This document shows, in pieces, positions 11,356 through 28,059 of a DNA stretch of 64,000 nucleotides. The position numbers and the translations under genes were made by a program. The notes beneath the pieces are model-generated. The model saw only the letters and a program-made list of their open reading frames with translations. It made no database searches and was not told the origin of the DNA. The stretch lies in the NCBI GenBank assembly GCA_944363525.1, contig CALVUF010000003.1, positions 173,776 through 237,775 on the forward strand, read 5' to 3'. Source of the DNA: an uncultured Bacilli bacterium. GTDB taxonomy: Bacteria > Bacillota_I > Bacilli_A > RFN20 > CAG-826. The number at the start of each line of letters is the position of its first letter. Position 1 is the first letter of the stretch.

Positions 11356-14300
11356 ATGTTTTGCTACGGTGATAAATTATATAAGGGCCATGCCATCCGC
11401 CTCCGTTATGATCCCGAGACCAACGCTGACCTCTGCCCCGACTTAGAGAAAAGGCTGGCGGCCTATAGTTCCCTTTATTTCCGGAAAGGCCACGCCGGCT
11501 ACCCCCGGGATTATGTCTTGCTAGACGAAGACGAAGAGGAATTGTTTTCCTTTTCCTTAGCCGATTGGACCATCGTCGCCTATGAAGTCGATGAAAAAGG
11601 AACCCCGTTATATGTCTTATTGGCCCATTTAGGTGGGTTCATTCCCTCTTATGTCGTGAATTTGGCTAATGGGGAGATCGCCGTCGCCTTGTTCGAGGAA
11701 TACCACGTGGTGGCCGAGGGACAGCATTATTGGCTCCGCGAACTCCGCAGCCTCTTCGACGACCCGAAATACATCCCTCTGGTTAGTCCTGGTCGACGGG
11801 TTAAACCCCGTTACGAAGAGGAGGAAGAGGAAGCCGACGTTCCGGAAGTGCAAGGCTATTTTCAGACTAACGCCAAAAAGAAGATAAGGAACCTCGGCTA
11901 TAGCCCCCGAAACGTGGAAGAAGAGGAAGAATCGGCCGAACAGCCGGATATCCCTGCCTTTGCCCCGCCGTTCACCCCGGGCTCGTCGAAGAAGCCCAAA
12001 CGGATCACCGGCTCCTTCGATCCCAAGCCGAAAATAGCCCCGGCGAACATCGGGCAATTCAAGAAACCGGCCTTTGAAGCCGAAAGGAAAGGGCCAATCC
12101 CCAACCTTGAAGCCAACCCCAATTACCGGAAGAAACCCAGCTACCGGACTTACGTCAAGGTCAACCCGACCTATGATTTCCGACCCGGGGCGGCCGTCTC
12201 CCGCAACACCTATTACCAGTTGGTCGGGAATCCGGCCAATTACTCGATCAAATCCCGAATCGAGAAGGAACTATCGAATGGCAAGCCCGAGTTCGATGAC
12301 CATTGCATCTATTGCCCGCGGGCCCTTCCTTCTGGCGACTTGGTCTACGACCTTTTAGCCGATTTCCGTCCGGAGGATTACGCCATTCTGGCTGCGGTCG
12401 GGAACCAAGCCAAAGTCGCCTCGCAGGTTTTGCTCCGCCATATCGGCGAGCCCTTGTTTTATCTTGTCCTTCAATTGGGACGGAAGAATAAACTGCCGAT
12501 CCTGGCCTATTCAAGCATTGACGTCTCGGTCGATAATAATTTCGTCTCCGGCAATTTCCTGTATTCGATCTACGAAAAGGAAAACGCGGTCGAAGAAAAG
12601 GCAGCGGAACCCGAGCCGGTTGTCACCCCCGAGCCAATCAAAGAAGAGCCGTTCGTTCCCACGGTCCCCGAACCTCCTTTGCCTGAAGCCCCAATCGAAG
12701 AGGAAGAGCCGGAAGTCGATTTCGACTTGGTCGAGGAACGGCGCTTATTCCGTTGTTTCCGTTTCCAGACCTCCTTGGCTAAACTCGTCGATAAGCATCC
12801 GGAGGCCGAAGAGGAGATCGCCAATCTGCAGAAAGAGATCATCACCCGGAGCGAAGGCAGTTTCCGGCAATATTTGGAAAGCCGGAACCACAAACAGATC
12901 AAAAAGATCCATAAGTTCCGCCTTAAGGGCGTCGATTACGCCGCCGCCCGAATTTTCTTCATCTTCGGTTCCGACGCCGCCCGTTATCCGAGCTTAGCCA
13001 ACCGGAATTTCCTCTCCTCCGATGTCTTGCTGCTTGACATCATTCCCCATGAGCAGCATGACCAGCAGGGCGAGTGGGCCGCCTTTTGGGAGGCTCGGTT
13101 GAAGGAGAACCGCTCTTTGCAGCTCGAACGGGTGTTCCTCGACGTCAACAAGAAGAAGACTGATTCGATTGCTTATCCAAGCGAAAAGCAATTCAATTTG
13201 CTCCGGAATGCCAGTTTGGTCCCACCGGTCGCCTTCATCGGCTCCGCCGGGACGGGAAAAACCATTCTTTCCTTGCAAAACTGCCTTGATTTACAAGGAA
13301 ATGGCTCAGTTCTGTATTTGACTTACGAGCCGGCTTTGCGGGATTATGCCGAGAAAAAGCTCTCGGAAATGGGGGCCAATAACGTCGAATGCTATACCTA
13401 CGCCGAGCTCGCTTCCTCCGAGCTTGGTGGGGCCAAGTTAGCCGATGAGGCTTACTTCCATTCCTTCCTGCTCGATTACTTGGATAAACGGCCTCCGCTA
13501 AGCAAAAAACTGAAAGCTATTGGCGGGTCAAGGGCCGCCCAAGCCAGCCGGGTGTATCTCTTCCTTCGGGGATTGATGTTCGGCTCGAAAGAGTGTGAAC
13601 AATCATCTAAATTGAGCCTTGATCAATTCCTATCCAAGATGGCCGATGAGCCTTCGATATCCAGCGAACTGGCTTCGGTTATTTACGAGATCGGGGTGGC
13701 TTATGAAAAGCAGCTTAAAGCCGATGGCCTCGCGACCGATAACCTCTTGGCTTGCCGGCTCATTAATAAGAAGAAACGGAGCCATTCCTATAGCGCGGTG
13801 GTCCTCGATGAATACCAGGATCTGACTGAGCTCCAGTTCATCTCCTTATTGCCGTATTTAGGGAGGAAGGAGACCCGACGGCTTTCCTTATATCTATATG
13901 GCGACGAGAACCAATGCGTCAACCCGACCATCTTCTCCTGGTCGCGGGCTAATGCCGCCTTGACCGAATACTTCGACCATTCATTCAAGATCTCGACCTT
14001 ATCCCTTGATGGCTCCTATCGAAGCGGCCCCAACCTTCTGGCTTTCATCAATAAGCTGAAAACCATCAAGAAGGAATCGATTGGGGCCCAGAAGCAGGAA
14101 CTCGACGCCGAGGAGAAATCCTTGCGGGAAGACCAAGAGGACCTCTTCGTCGCCTATATCGAGGAGAAAGGGAAGTTCGCCGATATCGTCAAAGTGGCCG
14201 CCCTTTCTGACGCCGACATCGTCTTCCTCTTCCCTTCGCCATCCTCTTGCAAAGCCAAGAAGGTCAGTTTGAAGCCGATTGAGGATCCGACCGTTCAAAC

Positions 14301-15060
14301 CTATATTCAAAGTTCCTTCCTCTCGGTCGGGGAAGCCAAAGGCCGGGAATGGGACGCGGTGGTCTTAGTCGATTTCCTAAGCGAATTCGGGGAGGAGTTT
14401 GCCGCTTGCTTAGAAGGCAAAGACTCCTCGACCCATGCCTCGACTATCCACCGGATGATGTTCAACCGGCTTTACGTCGGCTTGACCCGGGCCCGTAACC
14501 AGATCCTGATTTACGAGGAGGATGTTCCGGAGGTTTCAAAGGAAAAACTTTTAGTGAGCCTTGAGCCCTTGCCATTTGAGGATTATCGCTCCTTATTCCG
14601 CGACATCGTCGACCCGAAGCATTGGATCGCCCATGGGAAGCGGTTACTAGCCGAGCGCGATTACCTCGGAGCCAAACGGGCCTTCGAACGGGTAAAAGAA
14701 GACAAAGAAGGGGAACGGCTACTGAAGATCGCCGAAACCTACGTCCATTACGAGGATTGCCTCAACCTCCGCGATTCCTCTAATTGGGAAAGCGACTACA
14801 TCAATTTCCTTCTTAGCCAAAATGACCTCGCCCATCTTCGTGACCTCTATCGGAGATTGGGGCAAAAGGAGAAAGCCGATTTGCTCCATTTAACCCATAC
14901 CTCCCAGGAAGAAGGGGATGTGGTCGACTTATTCCGGAAGGTGGTGGAGCAATCCACTTTCTTAGAGAAAGCCACCTTCTTCGATTTCAGTTGCCGGAAA
15001 CTCGGCAAGAAGATAAAAAACGCCTTGAAAGGAGATAACGCCAATGGAAAACGCCGATGA
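11356..15060 (+). CDS. Large (1234 aa) protein: unknown N-terminal domain, an acidic/Pro-rich disordered linker, a UvrD/PcrA-like SF1 helicase core and a C-terminal TPR-like tail
   Basis: Helicase motifs: Walker A FIGSAGTGKT, motif II VVLDEYQDLTE, motif III YGDENQ, motif IV YRSGPN, motif VI YVGLTRARN. The N-terminal ~140 aa contain VLLDEDEE...YEVDEKG, a possible PD-(D/E)xK site. The linker contains PEPVVTPEPIKEEPFVPTVPEPPLPEAPIEEEEPE. A GAGGAAG ribosome-binding site precedes the start. Confidence 0.85.
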   Translation: MFCYGDKLYKGHAIRLRYDPETNADLCPDLEKRLAAYSSLYFRKGHAGYPRDYVLLDEDEEELFSFSLADWTIVAYEVDEKGTPLYVLLAHLGGFIPSYVVNLANGEIAVALFEEYHVVAEGQHYWLRELRSLFDDPKYIPLVSPGRRVKPRYEEEEEEADVPEVQGYFQTNAKKKIRNLGYSPRNVEEEEESAEQPDIPAFAPPFTPGSSKKPKRITGSFDPKPKIAPANIGQFKKPAFEAERKGPIPNLEANPNYRKKPSYRTYVKVNPTYDFRPGAAVSRNTYYQLVGNPANYSIKSRIEKELSNGKPEFDDHCIYCPRALPSGDLVYDLLADFRPEDYAILAAVGNQAKVASQVLLRHIGEPLFYLVLQLGRKNKLPILAYSSIDVSVDNNFVSGNFLYSIYEKENAVEEKAAEPEPVVTPEPIKEEPFVPTVPEPPLPEAPIEEEEPEVDFDLVEERRLFRCFRFQTSLAKLVDKHPEAEEEIANLQKEIITRSEGSFRQYLESRNHKQIKKIHKFRLKGVDYAAARIFFIFGSDAARYPSLANRNFLSSDVLLLDIIPHEQHDQQGEWAAFWEARLKENRSLQLERVFLDVNKKKTDSIAYPSEKQFNLLRNASLVPPVAFIGSAGTGKTILSLQNCLDLQGNGSVLYLTYEPALRDYAEKKLSEMGANNVECYTYAELASSELGGAKLADEAYFHSFLLDYLDKRPPLSKKLKAIGGSRAAQASRVYLFLRGLMFGSKECEQSSKLSLDQFLSKMADEPSISSELASVIYEIGVAYEKQLKADGLATDNLLACRLINKKKRSHSYSAVVLDEYQDLTELQFISLLPYLGRKETRRLSLYLYGDENQCVNPTIFSWSRANAALTEYFDHSFKISTLSLDGSYRSGPNLLAFINKLKTIKKESIGAQKQELDAEEKSLREDQEDLFVAYIEEKGKFADIVKVAALSDADIVFLFPSPSSCKAKKVSLKPIEDPTVQTYIQSSFLSVGEAKGREWDAVVLVDFLSEFGEEFAACLEGKDSSTHASTIHRMMFNRLYVGLTRARNQILIYEEDVPEVSKEKLLVSLEPLPFEDYRSLFRDIVDPKHWIAHGKRLLAERDYLGAKRAFERVKEDKEGERLLKIAETYVHYEDCLNLRDSSNWESDYINFLLSQNDLAHLRDLYRRLGQKEKADLLHLTHTSQEEGDVVDLFRKVVEQSTFLEKATFFDFSCRKLGKKIKNALKGDNANGKRR

Positions 15061-15502
15061 CAAGTTGATCAAGACCTTAGAGAGCCTTGAGCAATTAGAG
15101 GAGGACATCGCCTCAATTAAGGAAGTGGAGGAAAGCTTTGATAGCCGGCTCGCCGAATTATCCGACCAGGTCGAATCGCTCCATAACCGCCTAGGCGAAT
15201 ATAACCGCCAACTCGATGCCTTATCCTCCTGGGTCGAGAAGATCGAATCCTTTGCCAGCAAGTTCGCCGCCGTCAGCGCTTTGCTTGACCAGACCATGAA
15301 CGCCCTGACCAAGGAGACACTGGAAGCCACCGGGCAAAAACTCGACGAGGTCAAAGGGGCCTGCGAAGAGGTTGTCAGCAAACTTAATGAAGCCTCCGAG
15401 ACCAAGGAAAAGGAAAAAGAAGTCAAAACCGTCGGCAAAGGGATCAAATATGACCCGAAGAAGCGGAGCGGGGCCAAAGGGCAGGGGAAGAAAAAGAAAT
15501 GA
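15044..15502 (+). CDS. Coiled-coil protein (152 aa) with a Lys-rich C-terminal tail
   Basis: It overlaps the helicase gene end by 17 nt and the downstream gene by 4 nt (ATGA). The sequence is a heptad-like, E/L/S-rich helix ending in GAKGQGKKKK. Confidence 0.55.
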   Translation: MENADDKLIKTLESLEQLEEDIASIKEVEESFDSRLAELSDQVESLHNRLGEYNRQLDALSSWVEKIESFASKFAAVSALLDQTMNALTKETLEATGQKLDEVKGACEEVVSKLNEASETKEKEKEVKTVGKGIKYDPKKRSGAKGQGKKKK

Positions 15503-16404
15503 GCCGGGATCCCGCCGTCGTCTCCTTCACCATGAGCCATATCAAAGGCAAGGATACGGGGATCGAATTAAAACTAAGGAAGCGGCTATACTCCGATGGC
15601 TTCCGATTCTTAACCAATTCCAAACGGGCGTTCGGCCATCCGGATATTCTCTTTCCCGGGATTCGGCTGGCTGTCTTCGCCGATTCGGAGTTTTGGCATG
15701 GGTATAAATTCGCGGAAAATGAAGCCAAACTCGCAACCCATCGGGATTATTGGGTAGCGAAGATTAAACGGAACATGGCCCGGGACGCGGAAGTGAACGC
15801 TGAGTTGGCCAAGCAAGGATATAAGGTCCTCCGTTATTGGGGCTTTGAGATCAATAAGGATTTCAAAAGAGTCATCGCGGAAATCGAGGATGCCGTAAGG
15901 TTACGGCAACAAGCGTTGGCGCTGGCTAAACGTCCTAAGGAATTCACCACCTTAAGCTATTACAAGCAAGGCTCCAAATATCTGCTGCTTTATCGCGACA
16001 AGAAGAGAAACGATCTGAATGAGGGTAAGTATTTAGGCATCGGAGGCCATGTCGAAGAGGGCGAAACCTACCTTGAAGCCAGTAGACGGGAATTCGCCGA
16101 AGAGACCGGATTAACCGTCAGCAAACAGGCCTATTTAGGGCGGATCGATTTCGTCGCTTTCCCCTCCTACGCCGAACGGATGTATTTGTTCCGGGTCGAG
16201 GAAACGATAGGGCAACTAAACACCAACTGCGACGAAGGGGAACTCCGTTATGTCGAGGAAAACGACATTTTTAGTCTCCCGATGTGGGAAGGGGACAAAG
16301 TCTTCTTGCCCCGGCTCCTCTCCAACACCCGTTTTCGCCTGACTTTGATCTATCAGAACGGCCAATTAATCGACGTTATTGGGCCGATTGACGTCAAGAG
16401 TTGA
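15499..16404 (+). CDS. vsr: Very-short-patch-repair (Vsr) endonuclease fused to a Nudix hydrolase
   Basis: The N-terminal half aligns with Vsr: MSHIKGKDTGIELKLRKRL; GHPDILFP; FADSEFWHGY, with the D/D/H catalytic positions kept. The C-terminal half has a perfect Nudix box, GGHVEEGETYLEASRREFAEETGL. Confidence 0.85.
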   Translation: MSRDPAVVSFTMSHIKGKDTGIELKLRKRLYSDGFRFLTNSKRAFGHPDILFPGIRLAVFADSEFWHGYKFAENEAKLATHRDYWVAKIKRNMARDAEVNAELAKQGYKVLRYWGFEINKDFKRVIAEIEDAVRLRQQALALAKRPKEFTTLSYYKQGSKYLLLYRDKKRNDLNEGKYLGIGGHVEEGETYLEASRREFAEETGLTVSKQAYLGRIDFVAFPSYAERMYLFRVEETIGQLNTNCDEGELRYVEENDIFSLPMWEGDKVFLPRLLSNTRFRLTLIYQNGQLIDVIGPIDVKS

Positions 16405-16507
16405 AGCGGCGGCAAAAAAGTTTATTTTTCTTATTGACCTAGACTTCGCTTTGACTAAAATATGCGTTGCCCGATGGAAGGCCCGACCCCTAGCCCTTCC
16501 ATCGGGT

Positions 16508-16516
16508 TTTTGTGTT
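16508..16516 (+). promoter_or_regulatory. Extended -10 TGtTATATT, 14 nt upstream of the candidate ATG at 16531
   Basis: Read directly. Confidence 0.4.
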
Positions 16517-16530
16517 ATATTAGCCGCGTT

Positions 16531-17103
16531 ATGGAAAAAGCCACGATCGATGTCTCCCCAAAAGAGATCTACGCCGACGGGAAAGCCGGTGGATATCTAT
16601 TATCGGCCTTAAACCAATTTTGCCCCGATTTAGCCCCGAACGTCTCCTATTTATTCGTCGGCTATTCCTTGCTTGACCAAGACCTCTATGGGGCGTTGTT
16701 TGATTTAGCGATGATCAGCCTCTCCTCCTTGGTCTTAAAACGCCAGCTCCTCATTGGCCAAGACGAGACCAAATTGCCGGAGTGGGGGGATTTCCCGCCC
16801 GACCCGAATCAGGAGAAGTTTCTAAAACTCTCCGAGGTCTTAATCGGCAGTTTGACGGTGAACCTCGCCAATAAGGAAGGGATGGACCTCATCGATTGCT
16901 TTGGTCCAGCCCAAGCGATGGCCGGGGCTCTCTATGAAGGGATCCGCGATGGGTATAATGAGGATAGCGAAGACAAAAAGCAGGCTTTGGCCCATTTTAA
17001 GGACATCTATCTAAGCAGTCCCGACAAGCAAAGCCATTTTATCGAAATAACCAAAGGGCTCGAGCGGATTCTCCTCGAAACCTCGTTTAGGAGCGCAGCA
17101 TGA
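16531..17103 (+). CDS. Hypothetical protein (start uncertain; the ORF track begins at 16462)
   Basis: Continuous ORF with a short overlap into the downstream aminopeptidase gene. No recognizable motif. Confidence 0.45.
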   Translation: MEKATIDVSPKEIYADGKAGGYLLSALNQFCPDLAPNVSYLFVGYSLLDQDLYGALFDLAMISLSSLVLKRQLLIGQDETKLPEWGDFPPDPNQEKFLKLSEVLIGSLTVNLANKEGMDLIDCFGPAQAMAGALYEGIRDGYNEDSEDKKQALAHFKDIYLSSPDKQSHFIEITKGLERILLETSFRSAA

Positions 17104-25220: not shown

Positions 25221-26429
25221 ATGGAAAAAGTATCGCAAATCAAATCGGATGGTTCGTTAGTTTTAGATTACGATTCCTCATACACTCGCACGGAAATATT
25301 CAAGGTGCTGCAAGAACTTTTCGGCGATCGTGTTAGGAAGGACCGGAAACAATTTATCGTTTCCAGTAAAGTCGCATTGCTTGTCAAAAACATAACTTTC
25401 CTTGGCCATTCTTGGACTGCCGACAAAAAGAGAATGCAACTGCCGGATTACTATCCGAAGTATGTTTTGGACAATTCAGGGAAGGGTCTTCAATCGGTTT
25501 ACCTCGGTATTTATCACTATCGAGATGTCCGGTTGTATGTCGTTTATGACCCCAATCAATTCATTGATAAAAAGAGTCACAATTCTTCAGCTCATGTTAA
25601 CGTCTTTAACTTGCAGTACGCCCAGTTAAACGGTTATTTCAGCAAGCGAGATCGCAATGGGAACGACGTTCGCGTATATAAAAAAGATGGGTTCGTCGAT
25701 TATATTAGTCGCTTGATTGCTGACGAGAAGGTTGATCTATTAAGTGAAGTCGACCAATTCCTGGCTAACTGTGCCACCGACATATCTAAATTCATTCCCA
25801 AGAAATGGAATGCGATTGAATGCATGAAGGAAATGCGTGACGCAGGATTCAACAATTATCGGCAAAACCGCTGGGAGGGATGGTATTTTGAATTCCTAGT
25901 TCAAAAATACTTAAAAGGAAACCCGACGTCTAAATTGGTTTGGCACAACGATAAAACCAAAGAAGGCATCGATTTCGATATGGTAATCAGCAAAGAAAAA
26001 GCGATTTACCTTGATCTTAAGACGCATTCTAGCGGCGATTCAATTATGGGAAACACAATCGAGAGTTTCGAAAAAGTTGTCGAGGATCACGATGGCCGAG
26101 TTTACTATTTGTGTCTGGACTTGAAAGCGGAAAAGGATTCTGACCACGGCTATGTCGCAACTAAATTTTGGAATACCCTGCGCGACCACCCGGAAACAGA
26201 CGAGGAAAAATTGATTAACGAGTCTGGGAAGAATTTCAAATACAGCGTGGAAGTCGTCGGTATTTGCCTTCTTTCCATTAATAGGATTAGTTTTGAAATC
26301 CTTAAACAGAAGCCGTTTAACCAAGGGCATAATTCCGACGGTAAGCCAAGGAAACCCAAGGTTAACGTGGCCAAGAAATACATCGATGACTTGACCATTT
26401 ATTATCAGGATTTAACTAAAGAAAAATAG
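25221..26429 (+). CDS. Putative Type II restriction endonuclease (402 aa) paired with the downstream m5C methyltransferase
   Basis: Its GC is clearly lower than its neighbours. It sits immediately upstream of the C5-MTase. GIDFDMVISKEKAIYLDLK is a candidate PD-(D/E)xK site. There is no similarity to anything else in the window. Confidence 0.5.
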   Translation: MEKVSQIKSDGSLVLDYDSSYTRTEIFKVLQELFGDRVRKDRKQFIVSSKVALLVKNITFLGHSWTADKKRMQLPDYYPKYVLDNSGKGLQSVYLGIYHYRDVRLYVVYDPNQFIDKKSHNSSAHVNVFNLQYAQLNGYFSKRDRNGNDVRVYKKDGFVDYISRLIADEKVDLLSEVDQFLANCATDISKFIPKKWNAIECMKEMRDAGFNNYRQNRWEGWYFEFLVQKYLKGNPTSKLVWHNDKTKEGIDFDMVISKEKAIYLDLKTHSSGDSIMGNTIESFEKVVEDHDGRVYYLCLDLKAEKDSDHGYVATKFWNTLRDHPETDEEKLINESGKNFKYSVEVVGICLLSINRISFEILKQKPFNQGHNSDGKPRKPKVNVAKKYIDDLTIYYQDLTKEK

Positions 26430-26476
26430 TTAAGAAAAAGCTAGCTTTTCTCGAACAAAGCTAGTACAATTGGGCT

Positions 26477-27646
26477 ATGCCAATTAAAGAAAATTTCGCT
26501 TTTATAGACCTCTTCTCCGGCATCGGTGGGTTCCATCAAGCCATGACGGCTTTCGGCGGTCATTGCGTGTTGGCCTCCGATATCGATCCGGATGCTGTTA
26601 AGGTTTATAAAACCAATTACGGAATTGATTCCAATATCAATGTTCGCAACATTAAAGACGACATGGTACCCGATCACGAGGTTTTATGCGCCGGATTCCC
26701 TTGCCAGGCCTTCTCGAAAGCCGGCAAGCAAAAAGGTTTTATGGACCAAACTCGCGGTACCTTGTTTTTCGAAGTGGCGAGGATTCTTAAGGCTAAGCGA
26801 CCTAAGTACATTATGCTTGAGAACGTTCGCAATCTAGTAAGTCACGATAACGGAAATACCTATCGGACCATTTGCTCGGTCTTAAAAGAATTAGGATATA
26901 GGATACCCGATCAGTCTTTAATTCTTTCCCCTCATCAATTTGGGGTTCCGCAAATTCGCGAACGGATTTATATCCCTGGGGTTTATGATCCTGACCATGT
27001 TTCTGAACCGATTTTCATTGAGTTTGATCATTTGTTGAATAAATCTGACAATTCAATCGATTCGGTGTTGGAAGAAGGGCCGGTTGATCCGCTTTACTCT
27101 ATTTCCGAGCATGTTCTTGATGTCTTGACGGCTTGGGATGAGTTTTATCACGGGGTCGACGTCAAGGTTATTGGCTTCCCCGTTTGGTTTGATCATTTTT
27201 TGGATAAATCCATTGATCCTTCTCTGCCTGAATGGAAACAAACTTTCCTTAGGAAAAATCGCGAGCTTTACTTAAGGAATAAAGAGTTTATCGATGATTG
27301 GTCAAAAAAGTGGAAACATCTAAAAGGCTTCACTCCGACGGAGCGAAAGTTTGAGTGGCAATGTGGCACATCGCTTAATTCGATTTTCGAGGCCGTTATT
27401 CAAATGCGGCCATCGGGCATTCGGGTTAAGAAGCCTGATTGTTTCCAGGCTTTAGTGGCCTTGGTTCAAACACCGATTATCGGGAAGCTTAAGCGGAAGT
27501 TGACTGTGCGTGAGGCTGCAAGGCTGCAATCTTTTCCCGATTCTTTTAAACCCGACCCGAAGACGGGGCAAGCCTATAAGCAATTTGGCAATTCCGTGAA
27601 TATAAATGTCGTGAAAGAAGTCTTTGCCAAATTGATCCAATATTAG
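26477..27646 (+). CDS. dcm: DNA (cytosine-5)-methyltransferase, Dcm-like
   Basis: Motif I FSGIGGF, motif IV GFPCQAFS, motif VI LENV, motif VIII QIRER, motif IX REAARLQSFPD, motif X QFGNSV. GC is lower than the window average. Confidence 0.9.
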   Translation: MPIKENFAFIDLFSGIGGFHQAMTAFGGHCVLASDIDPDAVKVYKTNYGIDSNINVRNIKDDMVPDHEVLCAGFPCQAFSKAGKQKGFMDQTRGTLFFEVARILKAKRPKYIMLENVRNLVSHDNGNTYRTICSVLKELGYRIPDQSLILSPHQFGVPQIRERIYIPGVYDPDHVSEPIFIEFDHLLNKSDNSIDSVLEEGPVDPLYSISEHVLDVLTAWDEFYHGVDVKVIGFPVWFDHFLDKSIDPSLPEWKQTFLRKNRELYLRNKEFIDDWSKKWKHLKGFTPTERKFEWQCGTSLNSIFEAVIQMRPSGIRVKKPDCFQALVALVQTPIIGKLKRKLTVREAARLQSFPDSFKPDPKTGQAYKQFGNSVNINVVKEVFAKLIQY

Positions 27647-27648
27647 TT

Positions 27649-28059
27649 ATGGGTAAGAAAACCGTCCGAGCCGTGGCCGCCGTCATCGTCAAAGACGGCA
27701 AGTATTTCGCCGCCAAGCGGGGCTATGGTTTCCTAAAAGGCTACTTTGAATTCCCTGGTGGGAAGATCGAGGAAGGGGAGACGCCGGAGCAAGCCTTGAT
27801 TAGGGAAATCGAGGAGGAACTCAGCAGCGAGATCCTCGTCCACGACAAACTATTGACGGTCAATTACGAATACCCGGACTTCATCCTGGATATGGATGTC
27901 TTCTTCGCTTCGTTAAAGCAAGGGCGGCTCCTGCTCCATGAAGGGATCCACCTTGAGGAACGGTTCTTTGAATTGGACGAAATGGACGAATCACTCTTCT
28001 GCCCGGCCGACCAATTGATCGTCGCGGCTTTGAAGCGGCGCGACTTTGCTTTGCGATAA
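27649..28059 (+). CDS. MutT/NudG-type Nudix (d)NTP pyrophosphohydrolase
   Basis: GYFEFPGGKIEEGETPEQALIREIEEE is nearly identical in pattern to the E. coli MutT Nudix box region. It starts 2 nt after the MTase stop. Confidence 0.85.
   Translation: MGKKTVRAVAAVIVKDGKYFAAKRGYGFLKGYFEFPGGKIEEGETPEQALIREIEEELSSEILVHDKLLTVNYEYPDFILDMDVFFASLKQGRLLLHEGIHLEERFFELDEMDESLFCPADQLIVAALKRRDFALR

Follow-up and report, generated by a model that had tools for sequence, protein, structure and literature searches.

In the Vsr endonuclease of E. coli (1CW0, 1VSR), Asp51, His69 and Asp97 are catalytic (PMC2677866), Phe67, Trp68 and Trp86 form a wedge that intercalates into DNA (PMC2677866, PMC4081097), a structural zinc site is built from C66, H71, C73 and C117, and a dcm-type methyltransferase gene lies next door. 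Such adjacency is not obligatory: in Caulobacter crescentus, which provides the precedent for a vsr unlinked to its own methyltransferase, the gene of the Vsr-like VsrA is distant from the cytosine methyltransferase genes and VsrA is functionally tied to ScmA, its molecular activity still being putative (PMC12907096). Nudix enzymes act on free nucleotides: human and zebrafish MTH1 (NUDT1) are pyrophosphatases of oxidised and methylated purine dNTPs, and E. coli NudG (Orf135) and MutT appear, in passages of two reports, as Nudix enzymes hydrolysing 5-methyl-dCTP (PMC5158307, PMC3744803). MutY combines a DNA mismatch-repair catalytic domain with a following MutT-like fold in one chain, and this C-terminal domain recognises 8-oxoG in duplex DNA (PMC5389931). 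A fusion of Vsr to a Nudix hydrolase was not found described in our literature search.

Such a fusion is encoded in the window, by which we mean the whole 64-kb stretch of DNA from an uncultured Bacilli bacterium that was analysed here. The start codon of its gene shares bases with the stop codon of the ORF before it (ATGA), and its parts are as follows:

15499-16404, forward strand: complete Vsr-Nudix ORF, 301 aa plus stop, ATG start
15499-15861, forward strand: Vsr-type endonuclease domain of a zinc-less clade, residues 1-121 (Pfam, NCBIfam, 1CW0 alignment)
15862-15939, forward strand: connecting alpha-helix (residues 122-143) and a 4-residue link (AlphaFold2 secondary structure)
15940-16401, forward strand: MTH1/NUDT1-like Nudix hydrolase domain, residues 148-301 (Pfam, Foldseek, phmmer)

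Is the single frame real? The earlier note, made from the letters alone, had read Vsr and Nudix in one 301-aa polypeptide at these positions, a reading on which the ORF list, Pfam and NCBIfam agree, and had itself raised two doubts, namely a frame or assembly error at the junction and a dead Nudix half. The first is rejected on three grounds: (i) 12 contigs from separate assemblies (ENA ERZ24773499, Logan ERR4096582 and ERR4096588, and others) encode the identical 301-aa product; (ii) a database search for the combined architecture, which the note had proposed, found both Pfam domains in 119 of the 120 best clusters (48-95% identity, at least 95% coverage), so that at least 119 clusters, a lower bound set by the best 120, share it; and (iii) AlphaFold2 models the junction as a long, continuous helix without a flexible linker, with pLDDT 98 at residues 121-150 in a whole-fusion model of pLDDT 92 and pTM 0.85. 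As to the second doubt, the Nudix box is fully intact and nothing in the translation suggests inactivity. Purifying selection acts on both halves: in a comparison with an 80%-identical orthologue, the Vsr half has a dN/dS of 0.08 and the Nudix half one of 0.21; within the protein, variation is greatest in the connecting helix (dN 0.35 against the L001 sequence). The catalytic residues of both halves are invariant among 77 aligned family members, and by this measure both halves look active.

What does the Vsr half keep of the E. coli enzyme? Pfam assigns residues 4-71 to Vsr (PF03852; E 6.1e-20, with 71.3 bits where the cut-off is 27) and residues 90-133 to DUF559; the curated threshold of the NCBIfam model TIGR00632 ("vsr"), 97.85 bits, is exceeded with 100.6 bits; and 1CW0 aligns with residues 4-117 (E 2.8e-10), the secondary-structure elements of the two proteins being the same in size and order. 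The strings from which Vsr had been recognised at the outset (KGKDTGIELKLRKRL, GHPDILFP and FADSEFWHGY) are all in the translation, and two short stretches locate the active site:

15643-15645, forward strand: codon of Asp49, the equivalent of E. coli Vsr catalytic Asp51, in the GHPD motif (1CW0 alignment; invariant in 77 sequences)
15682-15699, forward strand: D62-S63-E64-F65-W66-H67, the active-site and DNA-wedge loop (1CW0 alignment, family alignment), in which F65/W66/H67 correspond to E. coli F67/W68/H69

The catalytic residues D49, H67 and D96 (E. coli Asp51, His69 and Asp97), the intercalating wedge F65, W66 and W85 (Phe67, Trp68 and Trp86) and the counterparts of E. coli E25, N93 and R96 are invariant in the 77 sequences, and 118 of 120 family members have Trp where E. 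coli has Trp68. Unlike E. coli Vsr, the fusion has Asp (D62) in place of His64, carries a Nudix domain after the C-terminal helix, lacks an adjacent dcm-type methyltransferase gene and has lost the structural zinc site, all four ligands being replaced (C66/H71/C73/C117 by E64/Y69/F71/F116).

This loss is shared by the nearest stand-alone relatives, zinc-less Vsr proteins of Clostridia (e.g., Flintibacter muris L025, Clostridium porci L031, Bilophila L021) that are 43-47% identical to the Vsr half and have the CDSEF(F/W)HGY and FWG(Q/F)E motifs in common with it; they differ in their length of 140-190 aa without a Nudix domain and in a Phe at the Trp68 position, where the fusion and E. coli have Trp. 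A PF00145 C5 methyltransferase adjoins 17 of the 19 nearest of them, which identifies the zinc-less clade as genuine methyltransferase-associated Vsr; the zinc site therefore marks the E. coli type and is not a mark of Vsr function generally. That a whole methyltransferase-associated clade works without it matters for the question of what stabilises the Vsr fold.

The Nudix half matches PF00293 at residues 160-273 (E 5.4e-14, 52.8 bits, cut-off 21.1) and is modelled by AlphaFold2 with pLDDT 90-98 over residues 148-300 in the Nudix alpha/beta/alpha fold. Foldseek reaches Nudix structures at E 1e-14, its top 50 consisting of MTH1 plus 3FK9 (TM 0.78-0.89, rmsd about 1.9 Å), and phmmer relates the half to MTH1 5OTN (E 9e-12). 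Two stretches carry its signature:

16045-16113, forward strand: Nudix box, G183-L205, GHVEEGETYLEASRREFAEETGL, from the translation
16285-16296, forward strand: W263-E264-G265-D266, equivalent to W117-P118-D119-D120 of human MTH1 (MTH1 alignment, family alignment)

The box fits GX5EX7REUXEEXGU at every position, just as the earlier note had it, and its G183, E189, R197, E198, E201 and E202 are invariant in the 77 sequences, as is E246, the equivalent of the MTH1 metal ligand Glu100. With MTH1, the half shares the box, an overall fold (TM 0.82-0.89, rmsd 1.9 Å, 26-29% identity to the human and zebrafish proteins) and the equivalents of Trp117, Phe72, Glu100 and Asp120; W263 and F218, which match the base-stacking Trp117 and Phe72, are also invariant. 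It differs from MTH1 in the fused nuclease and in the residues that read the base: Asn33, Asp119 and Asp120 correspond to L179, G265 and D266, so that only Asp120 is kept, and the Asn33 position is occupied by Ile, Leu, Val or Met across the fusion family.

Which nucleotide would such a pocket select? The earlier note had proposed 5-methyl-dCTP or deaminated dNTPs, removed in concert with nicking; this is not supported, and no observation points to 5-methyl-dCTP. The half is MTH1-like and not NudG-like: it scores 20.2 bits against a cut-off of 156 for the NudG pyrimidine dNTPase model (NF007834) and 28.2 bits against 97.9 for the MutT equivalog (TIGR00586), so that it is of another type than the two E. 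coli enzymes with 5-methyl-dCTP activity. All 28 stand-alone Nudix relatives compared have the same pocket signature as the fusion and lack the same two base-reading residues of MTH1, which argues that the half was not re-tooled upon fusion. The nearest bacterial relative of solved structure (E 4e-11), the MTH1-like "MutT" Q9K704 of Bacillus halodurans (3FK9), shares with it an xGD motif at the position of MTH1 Asp119-Asp120, differs in standing alone and in having Ala where the fusion has Trp263, and, in a study whose substrates included 5-Me-dCTP, had no significant activity towards 74 Nudix substrates (PMC5158307). Finally, the argument from the partner domain is itself weakened: members of the same Nudix clade (40-50% identity) are fused to at least 10 unrelated partners (GNAT, YunG, 2-thiouracil desulfurase, esterase, kinase, Fe-ADH, tRNA methyltransferase and others), which makes fusion alone weak evidence of a shared pathway or of a function that can be read from the partner.

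Does the Vsr half have 5-methylcytosine to attend to? The window contains one candidate source, in a low-GC island (GC 0.41-0.45):

26477-27646, forward strand: C5 cytosine DNA methyltransferase, 389 aa (PF00145 266 bits, TIGR00675 269 bits, HMM match)

This gene was missed by a regular expression for the PCQ motif and found with an HMM built from confirmed methyltransferases. It starts 10 kb after the fusion stop and has no Vsr of its own, the fusion being the only Vsr in the 64-kb window; as such it speaks for the Vsr half having work to do, and its product would be a source of the 5-methylcytosine whose deamination that half would repair. At the other 11 fusion loci, covered over as much as 10 kb on each side, the same HMM search returned no match; in all, 26477-27646 is the sole match in 259 kb of fusion-bearing DNA (12 loci, the window included), and no methyltransferase adjoins the fusion gene at any locus searched. 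The Caulobacter VsrA arrangement is comparable in this respect and differs in that VsrA is alphaproteobacterial and has no Nudix domain. A separate Nudix of the MutT/NudG type lies in the window at 27649-28059; a general linkage of this gene to methyltransferases was rejected, as the two are adjacent in only 2 of 80 metagenomic relatives.

The explanation we favour, held at about even confidence, is that the fusion is a bifunctional genome-hygiene enzyme. By homology, where deamination of 5-methylcytosine has produced a T:G mismatch, F65, W66 and W85 would wedge into the duplex, and D49, H67 and D96 with bound Mg2+ would nick 5' of the T; the Nudix half, held by the rigid helix, would convert a non-canonical (d)NTP to (d)NMP and PPi through its Nudix-box glutamates. 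Both activities would most likely serve one broad end, that of keeping errors derived from base damage out of DNA, and the fusion would guarantee that they are produced together. The Vsr half would thus be a core, chromosomally fixed function, not bound to one methyltransferase gene and able to serve any C5 methyltransferase in the genome, such as that of the low-GC island. Several observations count against this explanation: the zinc site of E. coli Vsr, the only characterised Vsr structure, is gone and His64 has given way to Asp; the Nudix half is without MTH1's Asn33 and Asp119, and Q9K704 was inactive on the 74 substrates; the HMM search turned up no C5 methyltransferase around the other 11 loci; the Nudix clade has many unrelated fusion partners; and the fusion has a single origin within a narrow lineage. 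If the halves cooperate, this would be the first physical tie of 5-methylcytosine-deamination repair to cleaning of the nucleotide pool, and would offer a clue to the function of a widespread clade of bacterial MTH1-like Nudix proteins whose one biochemically tested member has no known substrate.

The strongest competitor, which we consider possible and distinctly less probable, is that two neighbouring small genes merged once, were not selected against, and encode halves that are both active in unrelated housekeeping; the value of the finding would then be limited to correcting an annotation. Each half is an ordinary member of its own family, so that the combination is new and the parts are known. 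In favour of such an accident, the Nudix pocket is like that of the stand-alone relatives and the Vsr half like its stand-alone clade, neither half having adapted after fusion, and the promiscuity of the Nudix clade described above points the same way. So does the rarity of the event: a single one of 1.84 billion representatives is a full-length Vsr-Nudix protein, and the fusion family, confined to uncultured rumen and gut Bacilli, has a single origin and is kept to one narrow lineage. Four candidates for further independent fusions, P0154, P0205, P0121 and P0040, stood out by an odd length or by matching in two stretches; they were rejected on turning out to be a tandem Vsr, a Vsr followed by an unrelated tail, and copies with frameshifts. 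Against an accident stand the persistence of the architecture down to 48% identity in the clusters counted above, the confidently predicted, rigid helix at the junction, which has no flexible linker, and a second, independent adjacency of Nudix and Vsr, in an Oscillospiraceae genome (L018), as two ORFs that overlap by 14 nt.

The genes upstream of the fusion, listed here with a promoter-like site downstream of it, invite another reading, in which it is the nuclease arm of a helicase-nuclease module:

11356-15060, forward strand: 1234-aa protein with an unannotated N-module followed by a divergent UvrD-like SF1 helicase
15044-15502, forward strand: small coiled-coil ORF, 152 aa, overlapping the helicase stop and the fusion start
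16434-16461, forward strand: promoter-like site TTGACC-16-TAAAAT just after the fusion stop, by consensus match only

On this view, the Vsr-like domain would nick or cleave DNA generally and would act together with the helicase, the coiled-coil protein and the N-module, either in nick-and-unwind repair by the logic of MutH and UvrD or in an anti-phage system in which the Nudix domain senses or depletes nucleotides. The three ORFs do overlap stop to start (15044-15060 and 15499-15502), the N-module gene lies directly upstream of the fusion in all loci examined, and PADLOC weakly and partially matches the helicase with GajB, AbiO and Nhi, and the Nudix half with the candidate PDC-S07 (29 bits). 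We nevertheless regard this reading as improbable. Six of the 12 fusion loci with context (L006, L007 and L072-L075, of which L072/L073 and L074/L075 are near-duplicate pairs) have the N-module only, without the helicase part and the coiled-coil ORF, which occurs only where the helicase extension does, and the fusion there is unchanged. A link of helicase and Vsr through shared fusion was rejected, since none of 16 helicase homologues has a Vsr or DUF559 domain. Known anti-phage systems (Gabija GajB, Nhi, AbiO, PDC-S07) were likewise rejected: the helicase matches are partial and weak (about 20-40 bits, in generic UvrD regions), and the locus has no partner genes, a GajA-like one included. Nor does the setting resemble a variable island: GC is ordinary, synteny is kept among relatives at about 50% identity, and the phage and plasmid records searched yielded no fusion, which together mark a core gene and led us to reject an origin from a mobile element.

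The N-module itself spans approximately residues 1-420 and has short repeats of the type P.FEA..KKKI.NLG; its homologue search was swamped by low-complexity words and returned one match, and a profile of 9 N-modules found no match in the PDB. The promoter-like site suggests that the fusion is the last gene of its own transcription unit, in a region where the number of such sites is not above shuffled expectation.

A more ambitious proposal, again improbable in our estimate, extends the favoured genome-hygiene enzyme to action in cis: the Nudix domain would destroy a modified dNTP, methylated or otherwise damaged, as the patch is resynthesised, or, at the nick, process a DNA end that carries a linked nucleotide. 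With the repeat-bearing protein that is always its neighbour, and in half of the loci examined with the UvrD-like helicase extension of that protein, the fusion would make up a pathway complete in itself, in which nicking and unwinding are followed by resynthesis from a cleaned pool, for any acquired C5 methyltransferase. To our knowledge, Gram-positive bacteria have no MutH; the cis-acting pathway, if true, would mean that very-short-patch repair is organised in a new way in these bacteria.

Very unlikely, in spite of the MutY precedent of an established mismatch-repair enzyme with a Nudix-clan domain, the fixed orientation of the two domains that the model suggests and the absence of a substrate for the closest bacterial relative (PMC5158307), is a Nudix fold that reads DNA, binding a damaged or modified base to direct or license the nickase without hydrolysing free nucleotides: the MutY domain no longer carries a Nudix box (human MUTYH has VX2EX11QELXRWAGP there; PMC5389931) and is degenerate as a catalyst, whereas the box of the fusion is complete and invariant, its N-terminal enzyme is a nickase where MutY is an adenine glycosylase, Pfam gives PF00293 and does not report the MutY-type PF14815 at E up to 0.1, and the identical pocket is found in free-standing 152-aa enzymes.

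In public annotation, the protein bears the name "DNA mismatch endonuclease Vsr" alone, the Nudix half having been overlooked.

The Vsr-Nudix fusion is genuine, not an artefact. Its reading frame and domains are:

15499..16404, + strand: Vsr-Nudix fusion ORF, ATG start, 301 codons
Residues 4-71: Vsr (Pfam PF03852, E 6.1e-20)
Residues 90-133: DUF559 (Pfam)
Residues 160-273: NUDIX (Pfam PF00293, E 5.4e-14)
16045-16113: GHVEEGETYLEASRREFAEETGL (translation), an exact match to the Nudix box

The Pfam and NCBIfam domains and the exact Nudix box bear out the architecture proposed in the earlier note (the NCBIfam Vsr model, TIGR00632, gives 100.6 bits, slightly over its curated cut-off of 97.85), and every peptide string cited there is found in the translation. 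A frame or assembly error at the junction, the doubt raised alongside, is excluded: (i) gene calling on 12 contigs of independent assemblies yields exactly this 301-aa product; (ii) a search of 5.8 billion clustered proteins returns 323 relatives, and 119 of the best 120 carry both Pfam domains with at least 95% query coverage at 48-95% identity, the sole exception being a frameshifted copy; (iii) compared with the 80%-identical orthologue at locus L001, the Vsr half has a dN/dS of 0.08 and the Nudix half one of 0.21; and (iv) an AlphaFold2 model, built from a 77-sequence alignment, reaches a mean pLDDT of 92 and a pTM of 0.85. In this model the C-terminal Vsr helix (122-143) leads directly into the first Nudix strand at 148 (junction pLDDT 98), predicting that no flexible linker separates the halves.

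E. coli Vsr (1CW0) aligns to the Vsr half with an E value of 2.8e-10, and its residues correspond as follows:

E. coli Glu25: fusion E23
E. coli Asp51: fusion D49
E. coli Phe67 / Trp68 / His69: fusion F65 / W66 / H67
E. coli Trp86: fusion W85
E. coli Asn93: fusion N92
E. coli Arg96 / Asp97: fusion R95 / D96

All of these fusion residues are invariant in the 77-sequence family alignment; in E. coli Vsr, Asp51, His69 and Asp97 are catalytic, while Phe67 and Trp68 intercalate (PMC2677866, PMC4081097). By contrast, the E. coli zinc ligands Cys66, His71, Cys73 and Cys117 are replaced by E64, Y69, F71 and F116, and His64 by an invariant Asp62. Is this still a Vsr? The nearest stand-alone Vsr proteins (Clostridia, Bilophila; 43-47% identity) share the zinc-site and His64 substitutions, and more distant relatives retain the canonical GCFWH..H..C and WEC motifs. 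Because a C5 cytosine methyltransferase adjoins vsr in 17 of the 19 stand-alone loci of the nearest group (by HMM; six of the 17 verified as PF00145 by Pfam), the zinc-less clade is a genuine methyltransferase-associated Vsr, and zinc loss is no argument against Vsr function. A methyltransferase-linked Clostridia clade lacking all four E. coli ligands is seen at loci L018, L021, L025, L028-L031, L035, L050 and L053; in zinc-less stand-alone proteins, Asp and Glu in place of E. coli His64 and Cys66 make the active-site loop more acidic (CDSEFFHGY).

The Nudix half is MTH1/NUDT1-like by both sequence and predicted fold: phmmer finds zebrafish MTH1 at E 9e-12 and human MTH1 at about 1e-10, and the top 50 Foldseek matches (target-normalised TM 0.78-0.89, rmsd about 1.9 A across some 150 columns) consist of MTH1 entries and B. 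halodurans 3FK9. Human MTH1 Trp117, Phe72, Glu100 and Asp120 are kept as W263, F218, E246 and D266, whereas an aliphatic residue takes the place of Asn33 (L179; mostly Ile across the family) and an invariant Gly265 that of Asp119. W-E-G-D is common to all 28 stand-alone relatives examined, and the Asn33 equivalent is aliphatic in all 20 with a readable position; the Nudix domain was thus not re-tooled after fusion. Homologues from cultured organisms (43% identity) are annotated as 8-oxo-dGTP diphosphatase; of the near relatives, however, only Q9K704 (3FK9) has been screened biochemically, and none of 74 candidate substrates gave significant activity, in a study whose substrates include 5-Me-dCTP (PMC5158307). 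On the Nudix half, the equivalog models for NudG and MutT fall well short of their cut-offs and so give no specific pointer to 5-methyl-dCTP, leaving the coupling to this nucleotide suggested in the earlier note unsupported. Both halves appear catalytically competent, and the fusion is a new combination of domains from two well-known enzyme families, Vsr (here a zinc-less nickase) and Nudix (here an MTH1-like hydrolase); no earlier description was found in the literature searched, and current annotation of the fusion proteins reads 'Vsr' only.

The fusion is conserved and lineage-restricted. HMMER over 1.84 billion cluster representatives (clustering at 50% identity) finds a single full-length fusion, P0064 (51% identity), plus two truncated ones; the remaining strong matches are stand-alone halves or other architectures, so the fusion arose once. 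Among species-representative genomes, seven uncultured MAGs have it; they come from rumen and horse faeces and bear the labels Erysipelotrichaceae, Bacilli or Firmicutes. No fusion was found in phage or plasmid records. Although the fusion proteins are only ~50% identical, their flanks are kept, with a Sel1 protein, two ABC transporters and a GNAT upstream and, often, an M24 peptidase, a histidine phosphatase and an alpha-galactosidase downstream; since GC at the locus is also ordinary, the fusion is a vertically inherited core gene.

A methyltransferase lies about 10 kb downstream of the fusion in the same window, within a low-GC island (25221-27646; 0.41-0.45 versus 0.52-0.55 around it) that abuts a separate Nudix gene:

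25221-26429: MTaX1-domain protein, 402 aa, beside the methyltransferase
26477-27646: C5 cytosine methyltransferase, 389 aa (PF00145 266 bits, TIGR00675 269 bits)
27649-28059: MutT/NudG-type Nudix, 136 aa (TIGR00586 75.6, NudG model 53.7, NUDIX_4 55.9 bits)

The methyltransferase is detected by HMM and missed by a simple PCQ-motif search. A role in discriminating modified DNA has been proposed for MTaX1 in R-M systems (PMC10853773), and a C-terminal D...DLK motif in the island's MTaX1 protein suggests a PD-(D/E)xK nuclease. The island probably represents a type II R-M system that was acquired and has no Vsr of its own; the fusion is the only Vsr found in the 64-kb window, in keeping with an acquired methyltransferase being served by a core Vsr, an unlinked arrangement with a precedent in Caulobacter VsrA and ScmA (PMC12907096). 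The 136-aa Nudix follows the methyltransferase after a 3-bp gap; its GC (about 0.50) is near the genome average and only 2 of 80 metagenomic relatives (at L093 and L101) have an adjacent C5 methyltransferase, so the two are probably neighbours only because the island happened to insert beside a native gene. At L015 (9932-17434, a sheep-colon Bacilli MAG), a stand-alone Nudix of the fusion's MTH1-like type and two C5 methyltransferase ORFs are ~4 kb apart; one of these two ORFs is 48% identical to the methyltransferase of the window.

Does fusion imply a shared pathway? We give about an even chance to a bifunctional enzyme of genome hygiene, both halves contributing to one broad process, for which the predicted rigid junction and the retention of the architecture over deep divergence both speak. 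That the halves are functionally unconnected is less probable, if a serious contender: the MTH1-like clade is a promiscuous fusion partner, joined elsewhere to unrelated domains (GNAT, YunG, 2-thiouracil desulfurase, SASA esterase, CmpB, APH kinase, UDP-glucose pyrophosphorylase, Fe-alcohol dehydrogenase, a tRNA U5-methyltransferase-like domain, an epimerase and a second Nudix), but such a union sits poorly with that junction and retention. Several partners in these fused proteins (P0124-P0262; L009 7080-8030) handle modified nucleobases or nucleotides. Also against unconnected halves, at L018 (Oscillospiraceae) the best-matching stand-alone Vsr has its start overlapped by a different Nudix (26% identity), an independent gene-level association which, as one among ~45 loci, is not compelling in statistical terms. 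By contrast, P0199 and P0202, in which Vsr relatives are fused to C5 methyltransferases, illustrate a Vsr fusion of clear function. A KptA/Tpt1 gene (RNA 2'-phosphotransferase, PF01885) adjoins zinc-less stand-alone Vsr in two Clostridia loci:

L018 9598-11058: Nudix-Vsr-KptA, no methyltransferase found
L042 2369-4912: KptA-Vsr-HTH-C5 methyltransferase

Tpt1 enzymes use phosphorylated nucleic-acid ends as substrates, and nicking by Vsr produces a 5' phosphate.

The upstream genes raise a further reading, possible but not favoured and well behind the first two, in which the fusion is part of a helicase-linked module (helicase-nuclease or defence). The ATG of the fusion and the stop of a 152-aa coiled-coil ORF overlap, and that ORF itself overlaps the end of a 1234-aa gene whose C-terminal half encodes a divergent UvrD-like SF1 helicase, and the gene for its N-terminal module abuts the fusion in every locus examined. 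However, the helicase extension and coiled-coil ORF occur only in the window and L001-L005, being absent from L006, L007 and L072-L075; none of 16 helicase homologues has a Vsr-like domain, and PADLOC gives only weak generic matches for the neighbourhood, which together tell against such a role. A MutY-like DNA-reading role for the Nudix fold is very improbable. The N-terminal module (the first ~420 residues, without a Pfam or PDB family match) has two small globular ends flanking a variable number of short repeats of the P.FEA..KKKI.NLG type, and could be a multivalent docking protein. Its ORFs lie at 11356-12615 in the window and at L002-L007, L072 and L074; the repeats (P.FEA..KKKI.NLG / P.F.P.SSKKPRNL) fall in a stretch that is acidic and probably disordered. 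Directly downstream of the fusion is one more ORF:

16462-17103: 213-aa ORF, no Pfam match, behind a promoter-like site

This ORF runs into the start of the M24 peptidase gene and has counterparts of ~27% identity in L003, L005 and L007; in L072 and L074 an opposite-strand patatin gene takes its place.
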